Shown one piece after another: positions 2,405 to 56,600 of a DNA stretch of 64,000 nucleotides (the stretch's first letter is position 1; each line of letters starts with the position of its first letter). The position numbers were made by a program, and so were the translations under genes. The notes beneath the pieces were generated by a model. That model saw only the letters and a list, made by a program, of their open reading frames with translations, was not told where the DNA came from and did no database searches. The DNA comes from an uncultured Gammaproteobacteria bacterium (GTDB lineage: Bacteria > Patescibacteriota > Patescibacteriia > Magasanikbacterales > UBA922), in NCBI GenBank assembly GCA_964394405.1, contig CAYMVY010000002.1, forward strand, positions 92 to 64,091. Direction: 5' to 3'.

Positions 2405-2484
2405 ACTATGTAAATTAAAAAGTAAAAAGGAAAAAGTCAAAAGAACGTATGTATTCTTTTTACTTCTACCTTTTGTCTTTTGAT

Positions 2485-3885: not shown

Positions 3886-3990
3886 AGTCCCTGTATAGTA
3901 CCGCAGTAGTAGGAGTCTTTCAAATGTACATACTGCACAACATGTGCGGAAGGTGTGTGTAACTGGAAAGTTTAAAAAAAATGTGCTACA

Positions 3991-11929: not shown

Positions 11930-11931
11930 TT

Positions 11932-34654: not shown

Positions 34655-36352
34655 TTATGTTATTTCTTTAATCATGTATGTACCTTCTTTTTTGTAGCCA
34701 AGCTTTTCATAATATCCACGTACACCTACTCCGGAAATCACAGCGAGTTTTTTTACTTTATTTTCTTTGCTAATACGCTCAGCTTCAGCCATTAGTTTTT
34801 TACCGTATCCTTTGTGTTGACTACCGATTGTTTTTGTTTTTCCGATTCCGATCATTTGTCCATATACGTGTAGTTCTCGGATGAAAGCGCTGTTTGTTAG
34901 CTCGGGCATGAGTTTTTTTAAGTTTTCTAAGTTGGCTGAGTTAGCTAAGTTTTCTGAGTGGGGAATGCGTAAACGTAAGAAACCGTAGACGGCGATGCGA
35001 TTTTTGTCTTCCATTGAAATGAAATATTCTGTTCCGCCAATAGTTTCATATGTGTCAACAAAAATTTGTGGTTCTTCGTTTTCATTAATATTATCTTTTT
35101 GTCGATAAATTTCTCGGCAACGCAGACATTCGCAATGCTTTCCTTCTTTCTTTAATTGATATTCAAGCATCTCGCGCAAGTTGGTAATGATATTTCCATT
35201 CTCAATTTCTGTTGCAGGGATATCGCGAATGAGTCGAGAAATGCGGCAATAGCGGGGAGTCGCGAGTTTCATTTCGAGCAATGCCTTGAATAATCCTTCA
35301 TCGCCATACGATTTATATCGTCCATCAAGAAACCACTGATACAGCTCTGCGGATTTAATAACCGTGTTTGGATAAATTTTGATCATGTCTGGGCGAAGGC
35401 CTGGATCCATGAATATTTCTTTGTACATTTCTACATCATGCTCAGGGCTACTCCCTGGTAAATCAGGCATGAAATGCAAATCTACTTTGAAACCCGCTTC
35501 GCGAAGTAGGTAGATTGCCTCGCGGAATTGTTGTACTGTATGTCCGCGTTTGATTAATTCAAGAATTTTATTGTCTGTTGCCTGCAGACCTAATTCAATT
35601 CGGGTACAACCCTGAAGGCGCATATGGTGAATCGTTTTTCCCGAAATTGCGTCTGGTCGAGTCTCAAGTGTGAGACCAATAATACGATGTCCAGTAGATT
35701 CATTAATCGTTTGCTCTTTATCAAGAGCTTCCTGTAATTCAGTAAGAGGTCTATCATTCCAATATTCCTCACTGGTTGGACCAATTGGAACTTCACGGCT
35801 GAAATCATTGCATGCTTTGAATGATTCGAGAATGAACCAGTATTGATATTTAAGCGGATATGCATTCCATGTCCCACCTTTTAAAATATACTCAATTTTG
35901 TCAGTAGGGTGACCATTCACCTCAAGCATTTCGATGCGTCTCTTCATCTGTTCGTATGGGCTAAAATCAAGCCGTAGTGCTCGTGCTGCGGCGGGTTCGG
36001 TTGCAATATAGCTTTTGGGCATGCGGAGCTCAGTAGGGCAGTATACGCATTTTCCGGGGCAGGTATAGGGCTTTACCAATGAGGTTATAATTACTACTCC
36101 AGAAAGGGTACGTACATTTGCTTTGCGAAGAAAAAATTCCATTTGTTCGTCTGGTTCTACACTTTTCTTTTCGAGTAGACTCTGGTAGGCTATGAGCAGT
36201 TGTTGGTTTGCAGGTTGTTTGATTTTTAATTTCGAAGCGCCAAGTCTTTTTGCATCATCAAAATCCTCTTTGGTTTGAGGCTTGTATGCGACGATATATT
36301 CCATTAATTTTTCTGCTATTTCATTCATACGTATGTCGAAAGTTGACTTCAT
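34655..36352 (-). CDS. Elp3-like radical SAM / GNAT acetyltransferase (bacterial Elp3 homologue)
   Basis: Radical-SAM CxxxCxxC (CPGKCVYC). C-terminal GNAT (GYGKKLMAEAERI). 565 aa. It contains an in-frame 9-bp tandem insertion (ENLANSANLENL). Confidence 0.75.
   Translation of the reverse strand: MKSTFDIRMNEIAEKLMEYIVAYKPQTKEDFDDAKRLGASKLKIKQPANQQLLIAYQSLLEKKSVEPDEQMEFFLRKANVRTLSGVVIITSLVKPYTCPGKCVYCPTELRMPKSYIATEPAAARALRLDFSPYEQMKRRIEMLEVNGHPTDKIEYILKGGTWNAYPLKYQYWFILESFKACNDFSREVPIGPTSEEYWNDRPLTELQEALDKEQTINESTGHRIIGLTLETRPDAISGKTIHHMRLQGCTRIELGLQATDNKILELIKRGHTVQQFREAIYLLREAGFKVDLHFMPDLPGSSPEHDVEMYKEIFMDPGLRPDMIKIYPNTVIKSAELYQWFLDGRYKSYGDEGLFKALLEMKLATPRYCRISRLIRDIPATEIENGNIITNLREMLEYQLKKEGKHCECLRCREIYRQKDNINENEEPQIFVDTYETIGGTEYFISMEDKNRIAVYGFLRLRIPHSENLANSANLENLKKLMPELTNSAFIRELHVYGQMIGIGKTKTIGSQHKGYGKKLMAEAERISKENKVKKLAVISGVGVRGYYEKLGYKKEGTYMIKEIT
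34919..34958. repeat. 9-bp tandem units (RAGTTNKCT x4) within the Elp3-like coding region
   Basis: aagttttct aagttggct gagttagct aagttttct gagt, translated in frame as ...ENLANSANLENL.... Confidence 0.6.
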
Positions 36353-37460
36353 TTCCCAGAATAGAGATTTTTATGACATTATTGCTCCGTATTTTTCCAA
36401 TACCCGAGAGTTTTTGTGGGAAGATCTCAAAGATTTCTCCCAGTATATCACGAAGGATGATGCTGTTCTTGATATTGGGTGCGGGAATGGAAGAGTATAT
36501 CAATTATGCGAGAATTTGCAAGTAGCGTATACCGGGATTGATCAGAGTAAGGAACTTGTTGCGATAGCCCGAGAAAAATATCCGCAGGCACATTTTGATA
36601 TCGGAGAAATGACGACACTTCCATATGCTGATGCATCTTTTTCGGTAATACTTTGCATTGCAACGTTTAACCATCTACCAACTGTAGAAACTAGAATTCA
36701 GGCGCTCAAGGAAATGAAACGTGTACTGAAACCTGGAGGAGTTATTCTCATGACCAATTGGAATGTCTTGTCAGATAATGCGCAGAAATATATTGATAAA
36801 GGAAAATGGAAGATTGTAGATACTAATAGACAAGATGTCCTAGTGCCATGGATGACACCGATTGGTGAAAAAATGCCTGGCGATCGATATTATCATGGAT
36901 ATGAACTATCAGAATTATTTGATTTGTTTACCACTGTAGGATTTATTGTAGAACAGCAATATTATTCGAAAAAAGGAAAACGGAGTACAAAAAATGAAGG
37001 ACATAATATTGTAAGCATTATTAGAAATCAGTGGACTGGCGTACCTTCTGCTGGGGGAGTGGTAGTACGAAAAGAAGGGGAGGAATATTTTGTTGCTGTT
37101 GAAAGAGATGGGAGTTTGATTCAGGGCGAGTATTGGTTTATTCCCAAAGGTCATATGGACCCAGGAGAAACGCTTGAAGAAGCTGCACGACGAGAGATTG
37201 GCGAAGAAGTTGGTGTGACTGAATTGATCTATAATTGTTTTCTTATGAAAACTGAACGAGAAGCTGTGATTGGTGGTGAATGGAAGAATATGTATTATTT
37301 TTTGTATATTACTGAGCAAGTTGAATTGCAACCAACTGCAACTGATAAACCTCATGAAGCTCGATGGGTGAATTTGTTTCAGGATACACCGATTTCGTCG
37401 TTAGAGGAGCAAGAGAGAGTGTTTGAGATGGTGAGGAAAATAATTCGATCAGATGTATAA
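36333..37460 (+). CDS. Fusion protein: class I SAM-dependent methyltransferase + C-terminal NUDIX hydrolase domain
   Basis: MTase motif I VLDIGCGNGR, with post I/II motifs. C-terminal Nudix box GHMDPGETLEEAARREIGEEVGV. Confidence 0.75.
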   Translation: MSKVDFISQNRDFYDIIAPYFSNTREFLWEDLKDFSQYITKDDAVLDIGCGNGRVYQLCENLQVAYTGIDQSKELVAIAREKYPQAHFDIGEMTTLPYADASFSVILCIATFNHLPTVETRIQALKEMKRVLKPGGVILMTNWNVLSDNAQKYIDKGKWKIVDTNRQDVLVPWMTPIGEKMPGDRYYHGYELSELFDLFTTVGFIVEQQYYSKKGKRSTKNEGHNIVSIIRNQWTGVPSAGGVVVRKEGEEYFVAVERDGSLIQGEYWFIPKGHMDPGETLEEAARREIGEEVGVTELIYNCFLMKTEREAVIGGEWKNMYYFLYITEQVELQPTATDKPHEARWVNLFQDTPISSLEEQERVFEMVRKIIRSDV

Positions 37461-37481: not shown

Positions 37482-37850
37482 GTGTGGAGGTATATACGTT
37501 CTCACAATCGAGGAGAATTTAAGGATCGGCGACAAGACTTGCGCACATTTTCGACTAAAGCAGAACGAGTTTTGTGGCAAGAATTGAGAAAGCGAAAACT
37601 CAGATATAGATTTCGTCGGCAGTTTGGCATTACGACATATATTGTCGATTTTTATTGTCCATATTTGTGGCTTATTATTGAAGCTGATGGACCAATTCAT
37701 TTGAAACAAAAGGAACAAGATAAAAAACGCGAAGATTTTTTAAAATCTCGCGGATATACGGTTATTCGATTTACAAATGATGAAGTGTTGTTTGAACGAG
37801 AACGGGTTGTTGAGGAGATTAGGCGAGTGTGTCGAGAATTGGATGTTTAG
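37482..37850 (+). CDS. DUF559 / Vsr-like endonuclease-fold protein (GTG start, SD AAGGAGGGG)
   Basis: LWQELRKRKLRYRFRRQFGITTYIVDFYCPYLWLIIEADGPIH...GYTVIRFTNDEV matches the DUF559 pattern. Confidence 0.75.
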   Translation: MWRYIRSHNRGEFKDRRQDLRTFSTKAERVLWQELRKRKLRYRFRRQFGITTYIVDFYCPYLWLIIEADGPIHLKQKEQDKKREDFLKSRGYTVIRFTNDEVLFERERVVEEIRRVCRELDV

Positions 37851-37951: not shown

Positions 37952-38839
37952 CTACATCCCTGTAATCAAGCACGCAACCGGTCCATCGAATTTCCAATTT
38001 TTTTGTAAAGCTTTTTGTAATCCTGCAATTGAGAGTGCAGAGTTTGGGGAGATTATACTTTCACATGTTTCCTCGATGAGCATGATTGCATTCTTGATTT
38101 CCTTATCACTCACCACCCATCCGAACCCATCGGATTTTTTTATTACTTCAATTACATGCTCTTTTCGATGAGCGACATTGTCGACGATTGCTCCGGCAAG
38201 TGACGATTCTCTATGGATAAATTCTGTATCAAAATGTTCAGCTATGGGGTGGCAATGTTCGGTTTGTACAATATGAATTTGTGGTTTTGGTTGGTCTAGT
38301 TTTTCAAATTCAATTCCGAGAGCTTGTGCGGTGGTTCCAGAAGAGGTAGGAATAAAAATAGCAGAAAGATTCGGAATACGTGCTAATTCTTTTGCTAGTT
38401 CAAAATATCCTTCCAGCGCTAAGTCATCAGTCGATTGTCGAAGATTCAGCGCAGTTCCTGCTTTATGCATTTCAAGCGCAGATTTTTTTGGTCGTTCAGT
38501 TTGTGTAATGGTGATGTGTGAGTCTTCTTCTCTTTCAGTTCCTAGAATCAGTAACTTTTTTGGTTGTATTTTTTGCCCCACAAACACTGTGAGGTTAAGC
38601 GGAGTTTCGACATTATTTCGATTATGTAGACACACATACTTTATTGCAGAGAGTGCGGCATTTCCTGATGATGAGATAACAAAAGAGGATTTATTTTCTT
38701 TTTTTACATAATGTTCAATCATGTGTGGAATTGATCGTCCTTTGTGTGACCCAAAAGCATGGAGATCTTCGCGTTTTAGGTATACCTCGACTCCTAGTGC
38801 CTCATTTAGTTTTTGGTATGATTGTTGGGTGGTTTTCAT
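37952..38839 (-). CDS. PLP-dependent enzyme, fold type II (threonine synthase/dehydratase/cysteine synthase-like)
   Basis: LKREDLHAFGSHKGRS resembles the PLP-lysine motif (SFKDRG-like). Glycine-rich PLP loop SSGNAALS. Confidence 0.55.
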   Translation of the reverse strand: MKTTQQSYQKLNEALGVEVYLKREDLHAFGSHKGRSIPHMIEHYVKKENKSSFVISSSGNAALSAIKYVCLHNRNNVETPLNLTVFVGQKIQPKKLLILGTEREEDSHITITQTERPKKSALEMHKAGTALNLRQSTDDLALEGYFELAKELARIPNLSAIFIPTSSGTTAQALGIEFEKLDQPKPQIHIVQTEHCHPIAEHFDTEFIHRESSLAGAIVDNVAHRKEHVIEVIKKSDGFGWVVSDKEIKNAIMLIEETCESIISPNSALSIAGLQKALQKNWKFDGPVACLITGM

Positions 38840-39103: not shown

Positions 39104-39127
39104 AAAAAGCGCTCTACGCGCTTTTTT
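39104..39127. terminator. Bidirectional terminator (AAAGCGC-TCTAC-GCGCTTT) shared by the small ORF (+) and the NUDIX gene (-)
   Basis: aaaaagcgctctacgcgctttttt. Confidence 0.8.
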
Positions 39128-39129
39128 GT

Positions 39130-39678
39130 TTACTCGAATAACATTTTTTTAAATTCTTCAAGTTGTCCTTTGTAATACAAGGTAAGAATATCAAGCGACA
39201 GATCTTTTGATTGGAAATTTGGATCGATGATAATTTCCATAAATTCATCAAAAGATACCAGCATTGGTGTGATTTTTTCTCCAGGATCGAGATTTTGTTC
39301 TGCAATTTTTTTGCATTCGCGTGCAATAAACGTTTGGATTGTCCAATCAATTCGAGTATATAAATTTTTTGTTGCCAATAGTTCCCATTGTTCTGACGCA
39401 TACCCTATTTCTTCAAGCATTTCTCGTTTTGCTGCATTGAGTGGTTGTTCATCCTTATCTTGTTGACCACCCACGAGACCATATCGTTCAGGATAGGTGG
39501 GTTGCGTCTCTTTTACTATTATTATCTTATCTTCAATAATTGGAAGTATTTGTACACTACCTGGTCGTCTGAGCATTTCAAATGTTTTGACGCTTCCATC
39601 AAATTGTTTTTGATCCCAGTGGTAGGCATCGAAGATTATTCCTTCGAATACTTTTTTTGCGTCTTTGGGTATGGGCAT
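39130..39678 (-). CDS. NUDIX hydrolase
   Basis: Nudix box GLVGGQQDKDEQPLNAAKREMLEEIGY. Confidence 0.8.
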   Translation of the reverse strand: MPIPKDAKKVFEGIIFDAYHWDQKQFDGSVKTFEMLRRPGSVQILPIIEDKIIIVKETQPTYPERYGLVGGQQDKDEQPLNAAKREMLEEIGYASEQWELLATKNLYTRIDWTIQTFIARECKKIAEQNLDPGEKITPMLVSFDEFMEIIIDPNFQSKDLSLDILTLYYKGQLEEFKKMLFE

Positions 39679-39679
39679 A

Positions 39680-41056
39680 TTATCTACTTAGTTTACTCAC
39701 CAGCTCTTCGATCATACCACGAAACCCATGGCTACCGAGGAAGACGACAGAATCTCCAGGCTGAGCTTCTTCTATAATTGTCTGAATGAGTATGTGATCA
39801 TCATCAATATATTGTGTATGTGAATGTGTTTTTGTAATGATTTGAGCCAAGCCTTCGCCATCAAATGGTTTGTCTGCGTCTTTGTCAGTTTTGATGATTG
39901 TGAGACGGGGGATGATGACTATATCTGCGTCGGTAAATGCATGTGCATATCCTTCAGTTGCGCTTGGCTGCCTATTTCCAGTGTTTGGTTCAAAAATTGC
40001 AATTACTTTGCCTGCGGTGATTTTTTTCACGGTTGCGAGAGCTGACGATGCTTTGGTGGGGGAATGAGCAATATCATCAATAACAGTAACGTCACCTTCG
40101 TAGCGTTTTTCCATACGACGTTTGAGTCCTTGGTGAGCAGTGATTGAAGCGATAATTGATTCAGGTTCAATTCCAATCGTGTGGGCGAGCGCAAAACAGC
40201 CACTAATATTTTCTGCCTGATATTCACTTACGAAGGGAGTTTTGATCTGAAATGTTTTTTTGTCATGAGTAATCGTGAAAGTCATTCCATTCTTATCGCT
40301 TACAATATTAGAATACATGTAGTCATTGTGTTCACTTAGTCCATAGGTCACCACTTTGCATTCACTGTATTCTCTGTATTGTTCCGCACGTTCTGAAAGT
40401 ACGAGAAGTCCATCTTTCGGAAGAGAGCGTACGAGTGTCTCAAATGTATCAAAATATTTTTGTTCTGTTGGGTAAATATCTGCATGGTCCCATTCGACTG
40501 CGGTTAGGAGCAAGTGTGTTGGATTGTAGTGCGCAAATTTGGGGCTATTGTCCCAACGTGCGGTTTTGTATTCATCACCTTCGAGCACACTCCAGCCACT
40601 TTTTCCAATCTGTGCAGATGGAGTTTCATCTATACTTAGGCCACCAAACATATAGCTGGGGTCGTACTCTGCATCAGTAAGAATTTGAGCCATGAGCGCT
40701 GAAGAGCTGGTTTTTCCATAGGTCCCTGCACAGACAATTGAATTTTTCTTGAGGAAAAATTTTTCAATCAGTTCCGGATAAGAAACATAGGGAATGTTGT
40801 TTTCCTGTACACATATCCATTCTGGATTGGTAGAAGATGCGACGTTCCCAACAACTACGAGATCAGGATTTCCATTTGCGCACATTTTTTGTGGGTGCCA
40901 ACCTGGATAATAAGGGACGCCATTATCTTTCAGATATGTTGAAATAGGAGGAAAAAATCCTTTGTCACTGCCAGTCACATCGTGTCCAGCTTTTTTGAGG
41001 GCGAGTGCGAGACCTCCCATGGCTACGCCGCAGATTCCGATAAAGTGGATTTTCAT
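39680..41056 (-). CDS. Mur ligase family protein (MurC/Mpl-like UDP-N-acetylmuramate--amino acid ligase)
   Basis: N-terminal IHFIGICGVAMGGLALAL, P-loop GTYGKTSSSAL, 458 aa. Confidence 0.75.
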   Translation of the reverse strand: MKIHFIGICGVAMGGLALALKKAGHDVTGSDKGFFPPISTYLKDNGVPYYPGWHPQKMCANGNPDLVVVGNVASSTNPEWICVQENNIPYVSYPELIEKFFLKKNSIVCAGTYGKTSSSALMAQILTDAEYDPSYMFGGLSIDETPSAQIGKSGWSVLEGDEYKTARWDNSPKFAHYNPTHLLLTAVEWDHADIYPTEQKYFDTFETLVRSLPKDGLLVLSERAEQYREYSECKVVTYGLSEHNDYMYSNIVSDKNGMTFTITHDKKTFQIKTPFVSEYQAENISGCFALAHTIGIEPESIIASITAHQGLKRRMEKRYEGDVTVIDDIAHSPTKASSALATVKKITAGKVIAIFEPNTGNRQPSATEGYAHAFTDADIVIIPRLTIIKTDKDADKPFDGEGLAQIITKTHSHTQYIDDDHILIQTIIEEAQPGDSVVFLGSHGFRGMIEELVSKLSR

Positions 41057-41089: not shown

Positions 41090-42151
41090 TTAATTTCGAG
41101 CTATATCTGGAATATTTTTTCTTGGAATAATTCTAACCTGAACTTCTTTTTGTCCAAGAATATACGCTTTGACTAGTCTGTGTAATCCATCTAGAATAAC
41201 GTATTTACCCTTGTTTTCCATAATATCTATTGGATAGCGCAAATCAACTTGCTCTACGCGCTTTTGGTGATCGAGTGTTCCTTCTTTTTTATTAATCACT
41301 TCCCAGGGAGTTAGATTATATGCATCAGTGCCATCTTTTTCCCAAAAAGGTATATCAAAATGCCATGTTAATTCTTCAATATCTATGGTTTGTGTGGGGA
41401 TAACAAGTGCCCAGACTTTTTTTGAATCCCAATGGAAGTCAAAACCAACTTGCTTGATAATTTCTGGTAGTGTATCAGCATCATTGCGAGTATGGGTTAA
41501 AAGATTTTTTAACTCCTCAACATCTTCACTCCACTTCTCTCCATCAAACCATTCAGCTCCAGAAAATTGAAATTTATACGTGTCGGTAGGGCGCTGTGCT
41601 GAGCCGAGATACGCGTATTTCTTTTTAGCATCTTTTGACCAGACAATAGCTTTGGTCATCATTCCAATACCGATATTTGTAAATTGGCTCACGTTTGTGA
41701 GTTCGTAGAAGGGATAAGAATAGTGCAAGATATTTTCATTTGCATAGCAGATTGAGTAGCCGACTGCTTCTTCGTTATGAATATACTTAAGTAGTAAATT
41801 GAAATTACTTTCTTCAGTATCGGTCAGCAGTTCTTTTACTTTGTTTGCGCTAAAGGTTCCGTCGCCAAATTTGGTGGTATAAAAATCTTTGGCAAGTTTG
41901 CCGATAGACCAGTGATAGTTGGAATAGGAAAGGGGAATAGTTTCAAGCGTGATTTCATCAGTTTTTTTAAGCACTCGTCGATTTTCACTTGATAATTCAA
42001 ATTTTGATAAATCTATTCGTACACTACGCGTCTGATCCATTTCACCTTTGCCTCTGCGTGTAAAAACAAAACCATCAGCATATTGGTTACTAATGTTCTC
42101 TGGTGAGAAATCGGTAATGGTTTGTTTTTTCCAGGCGAGGTATGTCCCCAT
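41090..42151 (-). CDS. Fusion: aminoacyl-tRNA--protein transferase-like (ATE/Bpt C-domain-like, GNAT/Fem-like) + C-terminal ParB/Srx-like domain
   Basis: HYSYPFYE and IGIGMMTKAIVWSKDAKKKYAYLGS resemble Bpt/ATE motifs (YTFYDP, ILWQI..YLGYWI). The C-terminal YVILDGLHRLVKAYILG is a ParB/Srx DG.HR motif. The start may extend to 42214. Confidence 0.5.
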   Translation of the reverse strand: MGTYLAWKKQTITDFSPENISNQYADGFVFTRRGKGEMDQTRSVRIDLSKFELSSENRRVLKKTDEITLETIPLSYSNYHWSIGKLAKDFYTTKFGDGTFSANKVKELLTDTEESNFNLLLKYIHNEEAVGYSICYANENILHYSYPFYELTNVSQFTNIGIGMMTKAIVWSKDAKKKYAYLGSAQRPTDTYKFQFSGAEWFDGEKWSEDVEELKNLLTHTRNDADTLPEIIKQVGFDFHWDSKKVWALVIPTQTIDIEELTWHFDIPFWEKDGTDAYNLTPWEVINKKEGTLDHQKRVEQVDLRYPIDIMENKGKYVILDGLHRLVKAYILGQKEVQVRIIPRKNIPDIARN

Positions 42152-42159
42152 AGATGTGA

Positions 42160-42570
42160 TTATTTTTTGATTGCGGGCTGTGTTTTCTTTGTATTGAAAC
42201 GTTTTTCCATCCATCGATAGATTCCAATGAACGCACCTGTACTTAGTATCGTAAAGAATCCTACGAGCATATCGAATCCTCCGAAGAATGTCGCTACTAT
42301 TCCTCCGATCATAAAAATATAACTCCATGTTTTCATCTGCATTGCAGCAAAAAACATGTTTGCGGCAGGGTCCGAGAGATGCCAGTATCGATCGACGAGG
42401 AGAATATTGACTCCAAATATGAATACCCACATTGGTACTAGCAGAGTACCCAGTGTTTCTTCGGGGATTGATGAGCCAAATATCGCGAATGCGATAATTG
42501 CCCATACGAATGAAATACCGAATGCGATAGCGCCCACATAGAGCGCTTTTATTCTAAACCAGATTAGCAT
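42160..42570 (-). CDS. Small polytopic membrane protein (hypothetical)
   Basis: 136 aa, 4 predicted TM helices. Upstream in the same orientation as the tRNA-transferase-like gene. Confidence 0.55.
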   Translation of the reverse strand: MLIWFRIKALYVGAIAFGISFVWAIIAFAIFGSSIPEETLGTLLVPMWVFIFGVNILLVDRYWHLSDPAANMFFAAMQMKTWSYIFMIGGIVATFFGGFDMLVGFFTILSTGAFIGIYRWMEKRFNTKKTQPAIKK

Positions 42571-42810: not shown

Positions 42811-42846
42811 AAAAATACGTACGTACTGTACGTATTTTTTTAATAT
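42811..42846. terminator. Bidirectional terminator, perfect palindrome AAAAAATACGTAC-GTACT-GTACGTATTTTTT
   Basis: Immediately follows the mraY stop (minus strand) and the small ORF (plus strand). Confidence 0.8.
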
Positions 42847-43970
42847 AATGCAATCCAGAGGCCCAGCAATACCATTCCTGCATGCACGATCCAAAAACGC
42901 ATGACGGTTTTTTCTTCACTCCAGCCACGGATTTCAAAGTGGTGGTGGATAGGTGCCATGGAGAAGATTCGGCGACCTAGCGTGTAGCGACCAAGAATTT
43001 GGATAATCACACTTAAAAGCTCTACAAAGAAGATAAAACCGAACAGGGGGAGCAGAAGCATGTGATTGATCACAATCATATTGATTGCGAGTAGTGCGCC
43101 TAAGCCGAGTGACCCTACGTCTCCCATCTGAAAGCGTGCAGGCTTGATGTTGAAATAGGTGTAGGCAATAAGCGCTCCTGCGACCATGGTATTGAGAATG
43201 GCAATTTCTTGGTAACCTTCGAGCCAGCTCAGTACTCCAAGTGTTGAGAAGGTGACTAGTAGAGAGCCGCCTGCAAGACCGTCCATACCATCAGCAACGT
43301 TTACGGCGTTTGCGGTAAATACGACAAAGAAAATAATAAGTGGAATGATCCACCAGCCAATATTTACAAATCCATCAAATGGAATATGAATTTCTCTCCA
43401 TGTTTCACCGAGTTTGAAATATACCCACCATGCAGTGATTCCTCCAGCAAGAAATTGCAGTAATAATTTTTCGTGTACATGAATTCCACGACCTGGATGA
43501 CGAGACAGCCAGACTGAAGTCCGTTTGAATAATGACCAGGGGAGCGTGAGCATATACCAGAGACGCATTTTCCAATCGTGGTGTACGCGAATGAGGCGAA
43601 ATACTTGACTCAGCTTTCTACTTCGACGCTTCTGTCCATAGATATTCATCACATCATCAATTCCACCGAGAAGGGCTGATAAAAGCATTACCCCGATTGG
43701 TACCCAGGTATACTTTCTCTCCCAATTGAAGATCATGGTGAGTACCGCGACGGTAACAATTACCAATAAGCCTCCCATTACGGGAACTCCAGCCTTGCTT
43801 TTTCGTGCACCCATTGCAAGAGTAGCGTCGTATTCCGGACGTCTCGTGAGATTGTATTTATAGAGAATTTTGGTGAGCAGTGGAGCCCAGGCAAATGCGG
43901 TAATGCAGGCAATAATACCGTAGCCGATTGTGGATCGGAGTAGAATGAGAGAAGATTCGTCAATTACCAT
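42840..43970 (-). CDS. mraY: Phospho-N-acetylmuramoyl-pentapeptide transferase-like (MraY/WecA family)
   Basis: Polytopic. KSKAGVPVMGGL, GGIDDVMN, NAVNVADGMDGLAGG motifs of the polyprenyl-phosphate N-acetylhexosamine-1-phosphate transferase family. Confidence 0.8.
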   Translation of the reverse strand: MVIDESSLILLRSTIGYGIIACITAFAWAPLLTKILYKYNLTRRPEYDATLAMGARKSKAGVPVMGGLLVIVTVAVLTMIFNWERKYTWVPIGVMLLSALLGGIDDVMNIYGQKRRSRKLSQVFRLIRVHHDWKMRLWYMLTLPWSLFKRTSVWLSRHPGRGIHVHEKLLLQFLAGGITAWWVYFKLGETWREIHIPFDGFVNIGWWIIPLIIFFVVFTANAVNVADGMDGLAGGSLLVTFSTLGVLSWLEGYQEIAILNTMVAGALIAYTYFNIKPARFQMGDVGSLGLGALLAINMIVINHMLLLPLFGFIFFVELLSVIIQILGRYTLGRRIFSMAPIHHHFEIRGWSEEKTVMRFWIVHAGMVLLGLWIALY

Positions 43971-44052: not shown

Positions 44053-44114
44053 AAAAAGAAATGGCTTAATTAAGCCATTCTAGTTTACTGTAAAATAGGG
44101 AAAAATTCAAGTCA

Positions 44115-44763: not shown

Positions 44764-45537
44764 TTAAAATTTATATATGCGTCTTAGATGTATTGCCTCA
44801 GCCGACTTGAGATAGTCCCATGTTTCATTTTTTTCTCCAGTTTTTCCATCCTCGGTCCACTTTTGCTCGAGTAATGTTCCTTTTGGTTTACTAATTTCTA
44901 TACTACCACGTCTAATACCTTTGGTAAATTTTCCTTGGCTTTTCCAGGTATATGAATGTGTGTATTCTACTGAAATCAAATTATCAGCTTCATCATGTTT
45001 TGTCGAGGTTATTACAAGTATATGATTGTAGTCATGCTGGAGTCCGCCACCGATTGCAATAATCAAGTCCCCGGGAGAAAAATCTTTGAGTGCGATTTCT
45101 TTTGAATTTTCATTGAAAATAGTGACACTGGTATTTTCTACTGTGCGGAATAGTGCAATGAATCTCCGTAATAAACTTTTTGATTTGAATGATAGGAGAG
45201 ATTTCAGATTTTGGTTTTTTGTAGCGCGAAGTTCTGCGTCGAGGATGTAGTATACAAAAGCTGAACAATCAATTCCGATGTGATGGTCGGTAAGAAATTT
45301 TGTAATTGTACTTTCATCAAGAGCCTCTAAATCTACTTTATCCCTCAGACTGATGATCCGTGCTTCATCTGTGATTTCTTGCGCTGTGCCTTTGCCTACG
45401 AGTACTCGAAGTGCACCACGGAGATTGGTGGTTCGGTTATTGAAATACGGGCAATTGATAGTTTTATTTCCAATTTTGAGATGTTCGTATGAATCAATTA
45501 CTGCGAGAGCTTGGGGGGAGAGGGTTGTTGTCGTCAT
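44764..45537 (-). CDS. Hypothetical protein with papain-like cysteine hydrolase-type motif (NlpC/P60- or YiiX-like)
   Basis: HHIGIDCSAFVYYIL (Cys in a DCS context) and a downstream HILVITS histidine. Family not resolved. Confidence 0.35.
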   Translation of the reverse strand: MTTTTLSPQALAVIDSYEHLKIGNKTINCPYFNNRTTNLRGALRVLVGKGTAQEITDEARIISLRDKVDLEALDESTITKFLTDHHIGIDCSAFVYYILDAELRATKNQNLKSLLSFKSKSLLRRFIALFRTVENTSVTIFNENSKEIALKDFSPGDLIIAIGGGLQHDYNHILVITSTKHDEADNLISVEYTHSYTWKSQGKFTKGIRRGSIEISKPKGTLLEQKWTEDGKTGEKNETWDYLKSAEAIHLRRIYKF

Positions 45538-45619: not shown

Positions 45620-46837
45620 TTATGAAATAATGTCTTTAATACGTGCACCAATATCAGTAAATTCATTATCAGTTTCAATAATACTCGTTTTTGATTGTAT
45701 ACGTAACAGATCACTATTGTGTTCAGTATTGTTATACGTAATCACTTTGAAGTTTTTTTCTGTGAGTTTTTTTGATGCTTCTTCAACTTGTGCAAGTGAT
45801 GTTATTTTTTTTGTCACTCGTTGAATAATCTGTGCTCCATCAGAAATTTTTATCAGAGAATAATTTCCGAGTGGTTCATCCAAGAGTGCCTTCAGGTGCG
45901 CTTCGAGAATGGTGATGGTATCATCATCTTGTTTTGCGCTAAACTGAAGTTCGCTTTCGTACGAAGCGCTTGCAGGCTGGCGCGCATTGATTTCAATCAG
46001 ATACCATCTACTTTCTTTGGTACTCCAGATTGCGTCAATGCCGAATAATCCGACCCAGCCGAGCTCGCGAAGCGTGTCCGCAACCTCTCGGACCAACATA
46101 TCGTATGCGGTCCGTTCTGATTCATTGAGTATTCTATACGGTGCGCCCCAATCATTTCCAATAGTTGCAAATGCACTATCAGTGAATGGTTTTATTCCCG
46201 TAATCTGGTAGCTGATATTTCCAGTGAGAGTAACATCTTTTGCCACTACGATGTTACTTGTAAACACGGGTCCTTCTATTACGGGCGCAATTCGTGATTC
46301 ACGTTTTGGAAATCGATTTTTTAGTTCGTTGAGTTTTTCTACGGTATCAATAATCATTGTTCCACTTCCCGTGTGCGAGTGATTGAACTGAAGCACCAAA
46401 GGTGTGCCAAGCCATTGAATTTCTTCAATTCTCTTTTTTTCATATCGTGGCATGAGTTCACGTATTTTTTCGAGCGTTGTCAATTGTGTGATTTTTTCCT
46501 CGAGTGAACTTGCTAATTGTGACGCAGGATTGAGGAGTTCATATCCTTTTTCTCTACACCATTTTTCAATCAACGACGTATTTTTGAAAACAACAATTTT
46601 TGGTGAATCAATACTTACCAAAATTTTTTCTGTTTCTTTGTGGACTAGAAGTTCATGAGTATCAAGTGTGTTCAGGCTATCTACAAGATATACACGATCA
46701 GGGTAGGTATTTTTTATTAACTTGGCAAAGGGGGAATGATTTGAGATAATGAAAATAGACGGAATGGTAAGGCATCCGAGTGCACGCTCAATGTCACGAG
46801 TGATATAGACGATTGTGTTCTTGCTAAATTTCTTCAT
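45620..46837 (-). CDS. ATP-grasp domain protein (carboxylate-amine ligase-like)
   Basis: C-terminal ATP-grasp signature ...LFGIDAIW...RWYLIEINARQP. Divergent from murB. Confidence 0.65.
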   Translation of the reverse strand: MKKFSKNTIVYITRDIERALGCLTIPSIFIISNHSPFAKLIKNTYPDRVYLVDSLNTLDTHELLVHKETEKILVSIDSPKIVVFKNTSLIEKWCREKGYELLNPASQLASSLEEKITQLTTLEKIRELMPRYEKKRIEEIQWLGTPLVLQFNHSHTGSGTMIIDTVEKLNELKNRFPKRESRIAPVIEGPVFTSNIVVAKDVTLTGNISYQITGIKPFTDSAFATIGNDWGAPYRILNESERTAYDMLVREVADTLRELGWVGLFGIDAIWSTKESRWYLIEINARQPASASYESELQFSAKQDDDTITILEAHLKALLDEPLGNYSLIKISDGAQIIQRVTKKITSLAQVEEASKKLTEKNFKVITYNNTEHNSDLLRIQSKTSIIETDNEFTDIGARIKDIIS

Positions 46838-46872: not shown

Positions 46873-47841
46873 TTGCAACGTATGGATGGACTTGCGACAA
46901 AATTGAAACAGTATGGAAAAGTAAAGATAAGTGAGTTGTTATCAAAACATACATCTTTTAAAATCGGTGGTCCTGCACGATTTTTTGTCTCACCGGAAAC
47001 ACTCGATGATCATGTTGAGCTTATGCGGTATCTCGATGGTATTGGCGTCCCGTATATGATTCTTGGTGGTGGGAGCAATATGCTTGCAGGTGATTCTGGG
47101 TTTGATGGCGTGGTAATTCATCCAGAGTATAAGAAAATTACCCGAGACGGAAAACATCTTATTGCGGACGCAGGAGCTCTCACGGTGACCGTTTCGCGAG
47201 AGTCTATGAGAGAGCAACTTACTGGATTTGAATGGGGGGTCGGGGTGCCAGGCACTATTGGCGGAGCAGTGCGCGGAAATGCAGGAGCTATGGGATTTGA
47301 GATGAAAGATTCTGTATCGCGCGTGAAAGCGTATCGTGACGGAGAAATTGTGCTACTCACCAATGAACAATGCGAATTTGGATATCGTTCGAGTGTTTTT
47401 AAACGTGCTGGTGGGGTTGTGCTCCAAGTCACTCTTGAACTTGAAGCCACAGAGAATAAGGAATTAATCAAACATGCGCTTGAGTATCTTAATTATCGCA
47501 ATTCTACTCAGCCTCAAGGACATGCGTCGACTGGTTGTATTTTTCAGAATCCTGACGTTGGTAAATATCGTCCACAATTAGTTGAACATTTTGATAAATA
47601 TAGTGAGCATGTACAAAAATTTTTAAGCTTGGGTAAGATATCCGCAGGGTGGCTAATTGAACAAGCGGGACTCAAGGGTGAGCAGGTGGGACAAGCATTG
47701 GTTTCTGAACAGCATGGTAATTTTATTGTGAATTTGGGCGGAGCAACGGCTCTCGATGTGCAGACACTTATTGATAGGATCAAGGAAACAGTCTATACTA
47801 AATTTGGGATCATGTTGGAGGAGGAAATCTATACGTTTTAG
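46873..47841 (+). CDS. murB: UDP-N-acetylenolpyruvoylglucosamine reductase
   Basis: FAD-binding N-terminal TSFKIGGPARFF, and YRSSVF. 322 aa. Confidence 0.88.
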   Translation: MQRMDGLATKLKQYGKVKISELLSKHTSFKIGGPARFFVSPETLDDHVELMRYLDGIGVPYMILGGGSNMLAGDSGFDGVVIHPEYKKITRDGKHLIADAGALTVTVSRESMREQLTGFEWGVGVPGTIGGAVRGNAGAMGFEMKDSVSRVKAYRDGEIVLLTNEQCEFGYRSSVFKRAGGVVLQVTLELEATENKELIKHALEYLNYRNSTQPQGHASTGCIFQNPDVGKYRPQLVEHFDKYSEHVQKFLSLGKISAGWLIEQAGLKGEQVGQALVSEQHGNFIVNLGGATALDVQTLIDRIKETVYTKFGIMLEEEIYTF

Positions 47842-55670: not shown

Positions 55671-56600
55671 ATGAATATTTCCTTTGTTTCAAAACGAAAT
55701 TATTTCTTCTTGATCTCGATTGTATTTGTTGCGGTGAGTATCGTAAGTCTCATTATGTATGGTCTCAAACCAGGGATTGATTTTACGGGTGGCACCTTGG
55801 TTGAGTTGAAATTTACTCATGAGAGGCCAACTCTTTCAGAGATACAAGAAATTGTTCCTGAGTCGACCTATGGATCAAGTATTATCCAGTCTGTTGGAGA
55901 CATGGGATATCTGTTGCGTCTACGCTTTATCTCGGAAGAAGAACATCAGCAGATTCTTGCGAGTGCTCGGGAAAAATTTGAAGTAGCGGGAACAAGTGAA
56001 ACTCCTGAGAATCGAGTTCTTGAGGAAAGTATTGAGACTATCGGTCCTGCAATCAGTGAATCTCTGAGAGAGCGATCGGTCCAGGCGGTGATTGCGGTTT
56101 TACTTACGATTGGTGCCTATATCGCGTATACCTTCAGAAAAGTTTCACGTCCAGTCGCTTCGTGGAAATACGGACTTGCTGCTATTATCGCACTTTTCCA
56201 TAATATACTTATTACGATTGGTGTTTTTTCTCTTTTGGGACATTTTCATGGCGTAGAAGTCGGTATTTCGTTTGTACTCGCACTTCTCACGATTCTTGGT
56301 TTTTCGGTACACGATACTATTGTGGTGTTTGACCGTATTCGAGAAAACCTGAATCGATATGGGGCAAATGAGTTTGAGTCATTGGTCGATCGAGCGCTTA
56401 ATGAGACTTTTGTCCGTTCGATTAATACTTCGATTACGGTATTGATTGTATTATTCTCACTTTTTGTATTCGGAGGAGAATCAATCAGATACTTCGTACT
56501 TGCGCTGATTGTGGGCATCTTCTTTGGAACATATTCTTCGATTTTTATTGCGTCACCACTTTTGGTGGTTTCACATCGGTTGTCACGGAAGAGAGCGTAA
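55671..56600 (+). CDS. secF: Protein translocase subunit SecF
   Basis: LKPGIDFTGGT.., a 6-TM core, and its position after secD. Confidence 0.9.
   Translation: MNISFVSKRNYFFLISIVFVAVSIVSLIMYGLKPGIDFTGGTLVELKFTHERPTLSEIQEIVPESTYGSSIIQSVGDMGYLLRLRFISEEEHQQILASAREKFEVAGTSETPENRVLEESIETIGPAISESLRERSVQAVIAVLLTIGAYIAYTFRKVSRPVASWKYGLAAIIALFHNILITIGVFSLLGHFHGVEVGISFVLALLTILGFSVHDTIVVFDRIRENLNRYGANEFESLVDRALNETFVRSINTSITVLIVLFSLFVFGGESIRYFVLALIVGIFFGTYSSIFIASPLLVVSHRLSRKRA

Follow-up and report, generated by a model that had tools for sequence, protein, structure and literature searches.

The locus

The window analysed here is a stretch of 64,000 nt from contig CAYMVY010000002.1. The gene of interest is a continuous open reading frame of 353 codons plus a stop codon (positions 41090–42151, minus strand, stop codon at 41090–41092), and its translation comprises a Bpt/ATE-like domain, a linker and an Srx/ParB-like domain. 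All features described below are on the minus strand unless stated otherwise. The N-terminal domain (N-domain, residues 1–221; 41489–42151) is a Cys-less GNAT-type transferase of the ATE/Bpt superfamily, identified with NCBIfam Bpt models and Foldseek. It is followed by the linker TRNDADT (residues 222–228; 41468–41488), which has a pLDDT <50 and lies about where unfused transferases end, and by the C-terminal domain (C-domain, residues 229–353; 41093–41467), which adds some 55 family-specific residues to a sulfiredoxin/ParB fold.

A preliminary description of this DNA had given two possible start codons, 42151 and 42214. The ATG at 42151 (MGTYLAWKKQTITDFS) is the correct one, as the family alignment opens there with M..YL.W..xTITDFS and the independent call for P0001, which is the same 353-aa protein (100 % identity) in an independent assembly, agrees. 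The ATG at 42214 lies inside the upstream membrane ORF and would add 21 residues without a counterpart in any homologue, and the longest reading, from 42505, also overlaps this ORF; both were rejected. The motifs quoted in that description (LHYSYPFYE, IGIGMM...YAYLGS and DGLHR) are all present in the translation.

The upstream ORF (42160–42570) encodes a small, hydrophobic membrane protein of 136 aa with four transmembrane segments. Its stop codon is 8 nt before the transferase start, and it is lineage-specific, found only in the window and in loci L008 and L013. The next gene upstream encodes MraY (phospho-MurNAc-pentapeptide translocase family, GT4; 42840–43970; Pfam Glycos_transf_4, E 5e-28). 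A UDP-MurNAc ligase of the MurC/Mpl family with three Mur ligase Pfam domains (39680–41056) begins 33 nt downstream of the transferase gene, and is followed by a NUDIX hydrolase gene (39130–39678; Pfam family taken from L008), which is the last gene of the putative operon and is kept downstream of the ligase in many loci. A consensus scan placed a bidirectional terminator-like hairpin after the NUDIX gene (39104–39126) and another upstream of mraY (44059–44080), which may mark an operon boundary. Further downstream is a PLP-dependent (PALP) enzyme resembling threonine synthase/dehydratase (37952–38839; weak threonine synthase matches in NCBIfam and the PDB), and this gene is found downstream in nearly all loci, as well as in L097. 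On the other side are genes for a cytoplasmic NlpC/P60-like protein with a GIDCSAF motif (44764–45537; weak Pfam NLPC_P60 match, E 0.0025) and for an ATP-grasp enzyme of 405 aa, not a canonical Ddl (45620–46837; Pfam ATP-grasp_3, E 9e-5; NCBIfam biotin-carboxylase-like, E 7e-12; no sequence match in the PDB), that is conserved across loci. A divergently transcribed MurB gene lies beyond them on the plus strand (46873–47841; Pfam MurB_C, E 2e-29, and FAD_binding_4). The membrane ORF and the MraY, ligase, MurB and ATP-grasp genes are those that had been described previously.

The transferase domain

The NCBIfam arginyltransferase/Bpt models match residues 63–229 of the longer, 374-aa query beginning at 42214 (E 7.4e-12). 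The Pfam ATE_C profile gives an E value of 0.04 for the window protein and 1e-4 for close homologues (P0005), and many members of the transferase family carry a precomputed PF04377 match. The AlphaFold model (pLDDT 90.3) contains one GNAT domain, about 220 aa long, with the ATE_C fold, and in a Foldseek search of the PDB the best matches are ATE1 chains (E 1.7e-9), followed by A-PGS/MprF, L/F-transferase (E 2e-6) and FemX (E 4e-6), all of which are transferases that depend on aminoacyl-tRNA. Both the profile and the model thus bear out the earlier assignment of the N-domain to the ATE/Bpt superfamily. FemAB (PF02388), which had been named as a check, has no Pfam match at E ≤1, there is no ATE_N match in the window protein, and the family sequence profiles do not reach ATE1 in the PDB.

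The scores are below every curated cutoff (14.9 bits against 25 for ATE_C, and at best 45.2 against 170–267 for the NCBIfam models), and the N-domain is therefore not a Bpt orthologue. The ATE_N Cys4 zinc finger, formed in klAte1 by C23, C26, C95 and C96 (PMC9351520), is absent: there is no conserved Cys column in any clade (alignments A2 and A8), and the only Cys of the N-domain, C135, is not conserved. The N-domain belongs to the ATE1/Bpt aminoacyl-tRNA-transferase superfamily as one of its Cys-less members.

The transferase family includes 1960 clusters and is present in CPR genomes of at least 461 GTDB species, and residue conservation was scored over 40 sequences drawn from every clade. 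Three segments have possible counterparts in klAte1 and FemX, assigned by motif position and order rather than by superposition. The first, SENRRVLKK (41963–41989), is helical in the model, and S55, E56, N57, R58 and R59 are each at least 90 % conserved over all clades (n=40), with R42 and R45 near-invariant in the same set. It is a candidate counterpart of the basic tRNA-binding helix α3 of klAte1 (PMC9351520). The second, LHYSYPFYE (41702–41728), contains H143, Y144, Y146, P147, F148 and Y149, all invariant in the family of the candidate phyla radiation (CPR), and H143 is a candidate equivalent of klAte1 H178 and FemX H206, which bind C75/A76 of the tRNA (PMC9351520). The third is Y192-K193 (41573–41578), invariant in all 40 sequences and a candidate counterpart of the catalytic pairs Y303-K304 of klAte1 and F304-K305 of FemX (PMC9351520).

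Source databases name members of this family 'arginyl-tRNA--protein-N-Asp/Glu arginylyltransferase' or 'N-end rule aminoacyl transferase'. These labels, the Bpt models as the only named sequence relatives and ATE1 as the best structural match would fit an N-degron enzyme that transfers leucyl or arginyl groups to N-terminal Asp or Glu for Clp-dependent degradation, and whose position in the operon is incidental. We consider this very improbable. The curated cutoffs are missed widely and the zinc finger is absent. In addition, among the 17 distant matches read of the 150 listed in a search of 1.8 billion representatives, there was no canonical Bpt and all were members of the Cys-less family. 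No ClpS, ClpA or Aat was present among the annotated ORFs of the window, which is partly annotated, and of the other loci. The family also occurs in three independent peptidoglycan-related contexts, in several cases with overlapping stop and start codons.

Gene context in other genomes

The first context is that of the window. Searches with tblastn covered loci from 80 GTDB species, and the order MraY-X-ligase (where X is the transferase) was found in every window-type locus with both flanks covered, with MurB, ATP-grasp and NlpC/P60-like genes upstream in most of the 80. Across these loci, identity is 50–79 % for the transferase and 55–93 % for MraY. Gene context is guilt by association, and synteny in Magasanikbacteria-type genomes could be partly inherited rather than selected.

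The second context is that of a distant clade about 30 % identical (hhalign probability 100, E 1e-57). Here, X is found in a dcw (division and cell wall) cluster with the order ftsI-MurE'-X-ligase-MurB-MurA-Ddl-MurF-MraY, in which MurE' is N-terminally truncated and overlaps X by 4 nt, or in the order PBP-MurA-MurE-x-MurE'-X-ligase. The third is that of a non-CPR clade, the members of which are named by their sources as Verrucomicrobia, Calditrichaeota and Myxococcales. Alanine racemase is encoded directly upstream of X in 27 of the 38 loci with enough sequence, and 14 of the pairs overlap by 4 nt. ATP-grasp genes also accompany the family in this clade, and in the non-CPR loci neither a Mur ligase nor MraY was detected. 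Not all members have such neighbours. P0263, which is 40 % identical, has no adjoining peptidoglycan gene, and in L099, from a 6.5-Mb genome, X lies among DAP/lysine, GNAT and ATP-grasp genes and not among Mur genes.

As the gene and thousands of uncharacterised relatives are in cell-wall precursor operons, it probably helps to build the wall peptide. The preliminary description had proposed a role in peptidoglycan in place of one in the N-end rule, and the three peptidoglycan-precursor gene orders back this strongly at the level of comparative genomics, from which the function is inferred. A product outside the wall, for example an aminoacylated secondary metabolite, a lipid head group (as for MprF) or a peptide tag that an ATP-grasp ligase helps to make, is improbable. 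The GNAT-type aminoacyl-tRNA transferase fold does serve lipids and natural products too (PMC12945691), ATP-grasp genes occur beside the family in the non-CPR clade as well as the window cluster, and the context in L099 is one of DAP/lysine metabolism with GNAT and ATP-grasp genes. However, the CPR gene is embedded among those for MraY, Mur ligases, MurA/B and Ddl, with reading frames that overlap or nearly abut, and the alanine racemase and DAP genes themselves supply wall precursors. CPR genomes are also small and poor in secondary metabolism.

The partner ligase and the acceptor

The ligase had been described as MurC/Mpl-like. The family assignment stands, and the enzyme is better called Mpl-type than MurC-type. 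With BLASTP, the window ligase scores 226 bits against Escherichia coli Mpl and 107 bits against E. coli MurC, so that it is about twice as similar to the former, and all 77 orthologues examined are nearer to Mpl than to MurC. Its best PDB match is Psychrobacter arcticus Mpl (3hn7, E 5e-48). Mpl signatures are the segment (S/T)AFFDKRSK and the loop GI(C/G)GTFM (PMC3060825). The window ligase shares the 7-residue Mpl-type insertion at the same length (TARWDNSPK, 40538–40564) and has a GICGxxM loop, reading GICGVAM. It differs from Mpl in that the first signature is only partly kept and in the murC position that its gene occupies in the dcw cluster. The NCBIfam models do not separate the two, with 255 bits for murC and 251 for mpl (mpl cutoff 389), each under its own cutoff. 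A second MurC-family ligase was not seen in any locus examined.

The character of the ligase bears on the substrate of the transferase. One possible reading is that the diamino acid at position 3 of a UDP-MurNAc-peptide receives the aminoacyl group, as in Fem-like side-chain addition; we put this forward tentatively. Another, which is rather doubtful, is that the acceptor is the α-amine of a free D-Glu-type peptide, and that the Mpl-type ligase joins the product to UDP-MurNAc. The transferase would then place L-Ala or another residue from tRNA on free D-Glu or a γ-D-Glu-diamino-acid peptide, and MurC and MurD would be bypassed or supplemented. In its full form, which we likewise regard as somewhat unlikely, this would be a tRNA-dependent convergent route, in which the first bond (L-Ala-D-Glu or equivalent) is made by the Bpt-like enzyme, the free peptide is extended by MurE/MurF paralogues lacking the UDP-binding domain or by an ATP-grasp ligase, and the Mpl-type ligase attaches it to UDP-MurNAc, bypassing both MurC and MurD.

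Several observations favour a stem peptide built off the nucleotide. ATE1 and Bpt acylate the α-amine of N-terminal Asp or Glu (PMC9351520), and the partner ligase is Mpl-type in all 77 orthologues, with the Mpl-specific insertion shared by the window ligase. In the dcw clusters of L100 and L102, MurE and MurF are without most of the N-terminal UDP-binding domain and MurD is the only cytoplasmic step absent from the cluster, and L097 encodes a truncated MurE paralogue adjoining the transferase as well as a full-length MurE. In the non-CPR clade, X is accompanied by genes for an amino-acid racemase and an ATP-grasp ligase but not, in the vicinity, for a nucleotide-sugar enzyme, which suggests free amino-acid or peptide acceptors. 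On the other hand, divergent MurD-like ligases are encoded a few kb away in at least 10 window-type loci. The gene for the Mpl-like ligase sits ahead of murB and ddl, where murC is usually located, and the enzyme may simply be the MurC of this lineage, and the murC and mpl models score equally. The acceptor would also be a D-residue; we know of no ATE/Bpt substrate that is one, and of no pathway of this type for murein.

The C-terminal domain and the fusion

The family profile of the C-domain matches SbnI (E 8e-4) and sulfiredoxin (E 0.037), in agreement with the ParB/sulfiredoxin-like C-terminus reported previously, and the ParB/Srx core fold is present. There is no ParBc Pfam match in the window protein, and no HTH domain was detected. 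DGLHR (residues 321–325; 41177–41191) is a phosphate-binding-type motif placed where Srx has GCHR and SbnI has DGVHR, and it aligns with the latter; in family alignment A3, every member has the D, G and R and nearly every one the H. The segment PIDI...KG...DGLHR...AY parallels the nucleotide-binding segments of Srx and SbnI, and the C-domain probably binds a nucleotide. There are also differences. DGLHR takes the place of the ParB arginine patch GERRxR, which is missing, and Leu replaces the Srx catalytic Cys in every family member. The part aligned with SbnI covers only its residues ~27–85, and the C-terminal substrate-binding domain of SbnI/SerK is missing. The protein ends 28 residues past DGLHR, and the C-domain and the stand-alone members of its family are about 125–145 aa against a total of about 250 aa for SbnI/SerK. 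Unlike Srx, SbnI and ParB, the C-domain carries about 55 additional conserved residues of its own, VGFDFxWDSKKVW...WHFDIPFWE, and the stand-alone Srx-like proteins open with M..LPxIIKxVGFDF.

The fusion is present in only two of the 1960 clusters, P0001 and P0002, and outside the window lineage it occurs in a single relative, which is 80 % identical. Each half is otherwise a separate and abundant CPR protein family. In the nearest unfused relatives (L013 and L014, 79 % identity), the ligase gene starts 3 nt after the transferase stop, and unrelated small genes fill the transferase-ligase gap in about 30 of 78 genomes. Because this gap after the transferase gene is a hotspot for insertions, the fusion looks opportunistic. 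The transferase has other fusion partners elsewhere, namely a GNAT domain and a membrane domain. The fusion as a feature of the transferase system is therefore not upheld: the C-domain is a rare, recent and lineage-specific add-on that lies outside the conserved machinery. It would have been a separate small neighbouring gene, joined by loss of a stop codon in the common ancestor of the window genome and its one relative, and the linker appears to bridge what were once the stop region of the transferase gene and the start region of the small gene.

Purifying selection acts on both halves, with dN/dS between the two fused orthologues of ~0.07 for the N-domain and ~0.06 for the C-domain (85 % identity). 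That selection on the C-domain is as strong as on the N-domain is one of the points in favour of a meaningful fusion, in which the Srx/ParB-fold domain is an ATP/CTP-using phosphotransferase or a nucleotide switch that works with the transferase. Its role could be to make a phosphorylated amino acid as a substrate (as SbnI/SerK do), to feed the PLP enzyme or to gate tRNA binding. Among its nearest relatives of known structure are two serine kinases, SbnI and SerK, as well as sulfiredoxin, which uses ATP, and the PALP enzyme is conserved two genes downstream. The small family is also fused to SET domains and to ASCH, which is an RNA-binding fold, and in each of two distant loci, L063 and L073, the operon itself contains a stand-alone copy, placed between the ATP-grasp gene and the NlpC/P60-like gene. 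We nevertheless judge a meaningful fusion to be unlikely. Most stand-alone copies are in unrelated gene contexts, and by our own estimate two copies in about 1 Mb of cluster-flanking sequence are close to chance at one copy per 1-Mb genome. The rarity of the fusion, the insertion hotspot and the other fusions of the transferase also count against it, as does the lack of the SbnI/SerK substrate-binding half, the Srx catalytic Cys and the ParB arginine patch.

Proposed function and significance

The N-domain probably works in cytoplasmic synthesis of peptidoglycan precursors, aminoacylating a stem-peptide intermediate, and not in N-degron tagging. Aminoacyl-tRNA would be bound through the basic SENRR helix and H143. 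The invariant Y192-K193 pair would transfer the aminoacyl moiety to a free amine of the presumed stem-peptide intermediate, and the product would be handed to the enzymes encoded alongside, namely the Mpl-type UDP-MurNAc ligase and MraY.

No description of such a system was found in the literature searched. To our knowledge, the only aminoacyl-tRNA-dependent steps recognised so far in wall synthesis are those of the Fem/MurM family in Gram-positive bacteria, and the ATE1/Bpt branch is known only for N-degron tagging of proteins. What is new here is a third, very large branch that is tied by gene order to peptidoglycan-precursor enzymes and paired with an Mpl-type ligase. If the proposed function is correct, proteins automatically annotated as 'arginyltransferase' would have to be reassigned. 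Wall-precursor synthesis in CPR would be non-canonical, which would affect metabolic reconstructions that score 'murC present', and a new stem-peptide route may emerge. The enzyme would be small, well conserved and directly testable in vitro. The ParB/Srx fusion is a minor, lineage-specific detail, yet it flags a second uncharacterised family of small proteins.

Comparison with known systems

The transferase shares with Bpt and ATE1 the superfamily and the H-Y-x-Y-x-F-Y and YLG motifs, it has candidates by motif position for their SxxxRR basic helix and aromatic-Lys pair, and its size is like that of bacterial Bpt. It differs in the absence of the Cys4 zinc finger, in its N-terminal 60 residues and in scores far under the curated thresholds. 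Going by the 17 distant matches that were read, it forms its own large clade, and it is encoded in peptidoglycan-precursor operons, not beside Clp/N-degron genes.

With L/F-transferase (Aat), it has in common a small, single-domain form and the core fold of an aminoacyl-tRNA-protein transferase. However, there is no detectable sequence similarity, the N-terminal subdomain is different and the function of Aat is in the N-degron pathway.

FemX, FemABX and MurM share the GNAT-type catalytic core with the transferase, in which Y192-K193 is a candidate for their Phe/Tyr-Lys catalytic pair, and FemX is one of the structural matches. They would also share the predicted job, aminoacyl-tRNA-dependent transfer onto an amine of a peptidoglycan precursor. 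FemABX proteins have two GNAT domains (the FemX chain is about 335 residues) against the single domain here, and belong to another branch of the superfamily. The window transferase has no sequence match to PF02388. Fem genes are also not usually found within mraY/mur operons, where the transferase gene of the window is located.

Extent and integrity of the fused gene

The transferase gene fused to the Srx/ParB-like domain occupies 41090-42151 on the reverse strand, with an ATG start at 42151 and its stop codon at 41090-41092. The mechanical ORF with this stop extends up to 42505 and overlaps a second reverse-strand ORF (42160-42570) for a 136 aa, four-helix membrane protein that is conserved in the closest relatives. 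The preliminary description had left the start open between 42151 and 42214. In the family alignment, M..YL.W..xTITDFS opens all 20 homologues and matches the sequence from ATG 42151 (MGTYLAWKKQTITDFS), which is 8 nt beyond the stop of the membrane ORF, and the exact 353 aa product is called in an independent assembly (P0001, 100 % identity). A start at 42214, in contrast, would fall within the membrane ORF, and no homologue has an equivalent of it. The gene was therefore defined as 41090-42151. All of the motifs originally quoted for this protein are found in the window translation.

An assembly or frameshift artefact was rejected as the source of the fusion, as the ORF is unbroken in the window and in two further sequences, the independent contig L008 (Logan) and the 80 % identical L001 (NCBI MAG). 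It is also contradicted by dN/dS values of approximately 0.06-0.07 in both halves. Between P0001 and the other fused orthologue, P0002, dN was 0.14 and dS 1.9 for the N-domain (dN/dS ~0.07), and 0.10 and 1.6, respectively, for the C-domain (~0.06). By this measure, the fusion is not decaying.

The N-terminal transferase domain

Residues 1-221 belong to the ATE1/Bpt superfamily by both profile and structure matches. Six NCBIfam Bpt/arginyltransferase models matched (best E value 7.4e-12, residues 63-229 of a 374 aa query starting at 42214). The Pfam model ATE_C (PF04377) fell below its cutoff of 25 for the window protein (E 0.04, 14.9 bits) but gave E 1e-4 in P0005, a close homologue, and precomputed PF04377 matches are recorded for many homologues. 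An AlphaFold model built from 30 sequences has a mean pLDDT of 90.3, and its sole disordered internal segment is residues 222-228. The top solved-structure matches to this model were human, yeast and Kluyveromyces lactis ATE1 (E 1.7e-9 and below), followed by alanyl-/lysyl-phosphatidylglycerol synthases/MprF, L/F-transferase and FemX. Each of these enzymes is of the GNAT type and has aminoacyl-tRNA as its donor substrate. The Bpt/ATE-type assignment made from the sequence is upheld, at superfamily level, by the NCBIfam and ATE1 structure matches.

Among 40 sequences representing all clades, G27, R45, Y181, G183, Y192, K193 and W207 are invariant, and conservation reaches 90 % or more at R42 and S55-E-N-R-R59. 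In K. lactis Ate1, the catalytic Lys304 follows Tyr303, the counterpart of FemX Phe304-Lys305, a His contacts C75/A76 of the tRNA, and a basic helix binds the tRNA (PMC9351520). Judged by motif order, the candidate equivalents of these Ate1/FemX features are Y192-K193, H143 (within LHYSYPFY) and the SENRRVLKK helix. When profiles of the N-domain family (alignments A2 and A8) were compared with PDB, only a GNAT acetyltransferase was reached and ATE1 was not, so that the profiles give no residue-level alignment with the catalytic residues of ATE1.

The domain has no Cys4 zinc finger of the ATE_N kind, its single Cys is not conserved, and its scores fell far short of the curated Bpt/ATE1 thresholds. 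When 1.8 billion representative proteins were searched, 150 matches were listed, and the 17 distant sequences inspected included no canonical Bpt, all 17 being Cys-less relatives. The N-domain is a member of the superfamily that lies outside the Bpt/ATE1 family proper.

The C-terminal Srx/ParB-like domain

Residues 229-353 gave profile matches to SbnI and sulfiredoxin. Used alone as query, this domain recovered 665 clusters of stand-alone CPR proteins of 125-150 aa (54-69 % identity), a few of which are labelled 'ParB N-terminal domain-containing protein' by NCBI. Pfam searches with the C-domain alone returned nothing meaningful. In PDB, a 20-member profile matched SbnI with E 8e-4 and plant sulfiredoxin with E 0.037, and an invariant segment, PIDIM.NKG....ILDGLHR..KAY, resembles the parts of Srx and SbnI that bind the nucleotide. 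The C-terminus had been described as ParB/Srx-like with a DG.HR motif, and this description agrees with the invariant DGLHR and with both PDB matches. The domain is probably of a nucleotide-binding type. It differs from each of these known proteins: the catalytic Cys of sulfiredoxin is replaced by Leu, the arginine patch and HTH of ParB are absent, as is the C-terminal half of SbnI/SerK. It also has a conserved N-terminal extension of its own.

A role in defence or in a mobile element was considered for the ParB-like domain and rejected, as there were no PADLOC matches and no relatives in IMG/VR contigs. The C-domain core has a match (E 3e-14) in one PHROG without an assigned function. In other CPR genomes, members of this small family are fused to ASCH (P0141, P0142 and P0160) or SET (P0152, P0161 and P0170) domains, and an ASCH/DUF3850 gene adjoins secA just past the SecA gene of the window (Pfam annotation of the L008 copy).

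Origin of the fusion

Relatives of the N-domain form 1960 clusters, nearly all of 210-240 aa, and the Srx-like domain is found only in P0001 and in its 80 % identical relative P0002, which comes from the NCBI MAG GCA_034680565.1. In the next closest genomes (L013 and L014, 79 % identity), the ligase gene starts 3 nt past the transferase stop. The transferase-ligase gap has a median of 86 nt (78 loci), and in about 30 of these 78 loci (L013-L092) it holds 0.35-2.4 kb of unrelated small genes, which encode HAD-like, GNAT, 23S-rRNA-IVP, methyltransferase, membrane and peptidase-like products. This intergenic site is an insertion hotspot. Other lineages have transferases fused to a GNAT domain (P0048) or a membrane domain (P0080).

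In the window protein, the two parts are joined by a linker of 7 residues modelled with low confidence, which leads from the usual transferase C-terminus to the usual N-terminus of the small protein, LPxIIKxVGFDF. In the simplest reading, a small gene would have entered the hotspot and loss of a stop codon would then have fused it to the transferase. A stand-alone ParB-like gene was seen in the wall operon in 2 of 80 loci (L063 and L073, between the ATP-grasp and NlpC/P60-like genes), a frequency indistinguishable from chance, and the other stand-alone copies of the family are in unrelated contexts.

A small gene for a DUF559/Vsr-like endonuclease-fold protein (37482-37850, forward strand) is present in the window and L001, is absent from L002 and L005, and looks like another inserted gene.

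Gene neighbourhoods related to the window

Window proteins were compared by tblastn with 80 species-level loci from GTDB genomes, each with flanks of about 6-10 kb. The gene order is ATP-grasp, NlpC/P60-like, MraY, transferase, ligase, (NUDIX), PALP, with MurB divergent upstream in many. In all loci that are long enough to tell, the transferase gene lies between those for MraY and the ligase. Identity ranges from 50 to 79 % for the transferase vs 55 to 93 % for MraY. The record titles name Magasanikbacteria, Paceibacterota, Taylorbacteria, Nomurabacteria and Parcubacteria, but titles of metagenome bins are unreliable, and many read 'uncultured Gammaproteobacteria' for CPR-like gene content. 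In the window, terminator-like hairpins lie on both sides of the mraY to NUDIX stretch.

The 405 aa ATP-grasp protein (45620-46837, reverse strand) is not a canonical Ddl and has no sequence relative in PDB. Most of the 80 loci keep its gene and that for a cytoplasmic NlpC/P60-like protein (44764-45537, reverse strand; GIDCSAF motif, no signal peptide) next to murB/mraY. A gene for a PLP-dependent PALP enzyme with weak similarity to threonine synthase/dehydratase (37952-38839, reverse strand) closely follows the ligase/NUDIX genes in almost every window-type locus, and the enzyme is also encoded in the distant locus L097 (10446-11555). Genes for a 565 aa radical-SAM protein with Radical_SAM_C and a GNAT-like tail, an ELP3-like architecture (34655-36352, reverse strand), and for a methyltransferase-NUDIX fusion protein (36282-37460, forward strand) are both kept beside the cluster in related loci. 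Genes for divergent MurD-like ligases lie 2-5 kb past the ligase gene, on the other strand, in L047, L051, L068, L072, L077, L080, L082, L086, L090 and L092. The MurD-like ligases, found in at least 10 window-type loci, reach 118-140 bits with TIGR01087, whose cutoff is 212, mainly over the C-terminal half; a canonical MurD (373 bits) is present in the unrelated locus L011.

Elsewhere in the window, MurA (22081-23388, forward strand) is about 18 kb from the operon, beside a CtpA-like S41 protease, and glycosyltransferase and sugar-nucleotide genes form a block at about 4-20.7 kb. SecD (682 aa; 53617-55665, forward strand) has two inserted PpiC-type peptidyl-prolyl isomerase (rotamase) domains and is directly followed by SecF (55671-56600).

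Distant gene neighbourhoods

A second clade of 2819 clusters, 27-39 % identical, shows full-length homology to the window family (hhalign probability 100, E 1e-57). In L100 and L102, the transferase gene (X) is within a dcw cluster, mraZ-rsmH-ftsL-ftsI-MurE'-X-ligase-MurB-MurA-Ddl-MurF-MraY, where the stop of MurE' (an N-truncated MurE) overlaps the start of X by 4 nt and MurD, FtsW and MurG do not follow. MurE' and MurF start approximately 50-70 family-model positions late, and the upstream space is insufficient for the missing part. In L100, MurE' is 411 aa (4769-6001) and the short MurF 401 aa (11464-12666), and most of the N-terminal UDP-binding domain is missing. The order in L097 is PBP-MurA-MurE(full length)-x-MurE'(truncated)-X-ligase, with a 495 aa MurE (2436-3920) and the truncated 421 aa paralogue (4739-6001) beside the transferase.

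Non-CPR members, named in the sources as Verrucomicrobia, Calditrichaeota and Myxococcales, were examined in 80 metagenome loci (L103-L182); the broad alignment A5 has no conserved stretch, and the metagenome scan rests on A7. An alanine racemase gene (Pfam E 4e-68) precedes the transferase gene. Of the 38 loci that extend 1.4 kb or more upstream, 27 have the racemase as the direct neighbour and 32 have it no more than three genes away. In 14 loci the racemase and transferase genes overlap by 4 nt, and there the racemase is predicted to be translationally coupled to the Bpt-like gene. An upstream PurD-like ATP-grasp gene is within three genes in 21 of the 38; BLASTP at 1e-3 found no match between this protein and the window ATP-grasp. 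A convergent tRNA dihydrouridine synthase (Dus) gene often lies downstream. A Mur ligase or MraY was found in none of the 80 loci.

There are exceptions. P0263 (40 % identity) adjoins no recognizable wall gene, and P0495 is amid dapF, aminotransferase and DAP-decarboxylase-type genes and an ATP-grasp gene.

The partner ligase

The ligase encoded downstream of the transferase (39680-41056, reverse strand) scored 255 bits with the NCBIfam murC model and 251 bits with mpl, both under cutoff. Its best PDB match was Psychrobacter arcticus Mpl (3hn7, E 5e-48, 167 bits); Neisseria meningitidis Mpl (3eag) gave E 6e-37 and 131 bits, and most MurC structures gave 90-128 bits, with one exception at 152 bits (9ir5). 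In BLASTP comparisons it scored 226 bits with Escherichia coli K-12 Mpl vs 107 bits with MurC, and all 77 orthologues beside a transferase likewise scored higher with Mpl than with MurC, at a median of 196 vs 111 bits. The Mpl structure paper highlighted a 7-residue insertion, (S/T)AFFDKRSK (PMC3060825), and the window ligase aligns TARWDNSPK (40538-40564, reverse strand) with it. The segment reads DEYDCAFFDKRSKFVHY in E. coli Mpl, DEYKTARWDNSPKFAHY in the window ligase, DEHPAVLYFDEKSKFEYY in the L097 ligase and DESDA-------SFLHL in E. coli MurC.

The ligase gene fills the usual murC slot, ahead of murB and ddl (L102), and no second MurC-family ligase was found in any locus within flanks of about 6-10 kb. 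Because an Mpl-like sequence is combined with the murC position and the lack of a second such ligase, this protein may be either the MurC of the lineage with Mpl-like features or a true peptide ligase. Metabolic reconstructions that score such ligases as murC may mislabel them.

Function of the transferase

The best-supported inference is that the transferase is linked to wall-precursor metabolism, because its gene is found in three different arrangements, several with coupled reading frames. These distinct wall-precursor arrangements argue against an N-degron enzyme placed incidentally in wall-gene loci, and they bear out the earlier preference for a peptidoglycan role over the N-end rule. 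From homology, predicted structure and gene order, on which all functional statements here rest, the protein is somewhat more likely than not to take aminoacyl groups from tRNA and transfer them to a free amine of a cytoplasmic stem-peptide intermediate. No tRNA or tmRNA gene was found in the 64 kb window, and hence no tRNA gene dedicated to the operon.

The acceptor might be the position-3 diamino acid of a UDP-MurNAc-peptide, to which a side-chain residue would be added as by Fem enzymes. We put this forward tentatively; it has biochemical precedent and accounts for the adjacency of MurE' and MraY. A slightly less likely route is acylation of the alpha-amine of D-Glu or of a gamma-D-Glu peptide, with the Mpl-type ligase joining the product to UDP-MurNAc. 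This route would use the known preference of ATE/Bpt enzymes for N-terminal acidic acceptors (PMC9351520). Unlike Fem-like addition, it also accounts for the Mpl-type partner, the MurE' and MurF without a UDP domain, the missing MurD in an otherwise complete cluster, and the racemase and ATP-grasp partners without an adjacent nucleotide-sugar enzyme. However, the divergent MurD-like ligases a few kb away in at least 10 window-type loci (118-140 bits, cutoff 212) count against acylation of a free peptide, and we know of no precedent for it in murein synthesis.

Relationship to known systems

Full-text searches and reviews yielded no report tying ATE/Bpt-like proteins to peptidoglycan or Mur ligases, and a 2026 review of aminoacyl-tRNA-dependent enzymes (PMC12945691) does not mention a Bpt-like wall-operon branch. 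Family members are labelled arginyltransferase or hypothetical protein in the source databases. A tRNA-dependent step in wall synthesis is already known from the Fem enzymes. Relative to these, a Bpt-like branch in mur operons that is paired with an Mpl-type ligase would, if confirmed, be a new variant, and the free-peptide route, if it operates, would be a new pathway.
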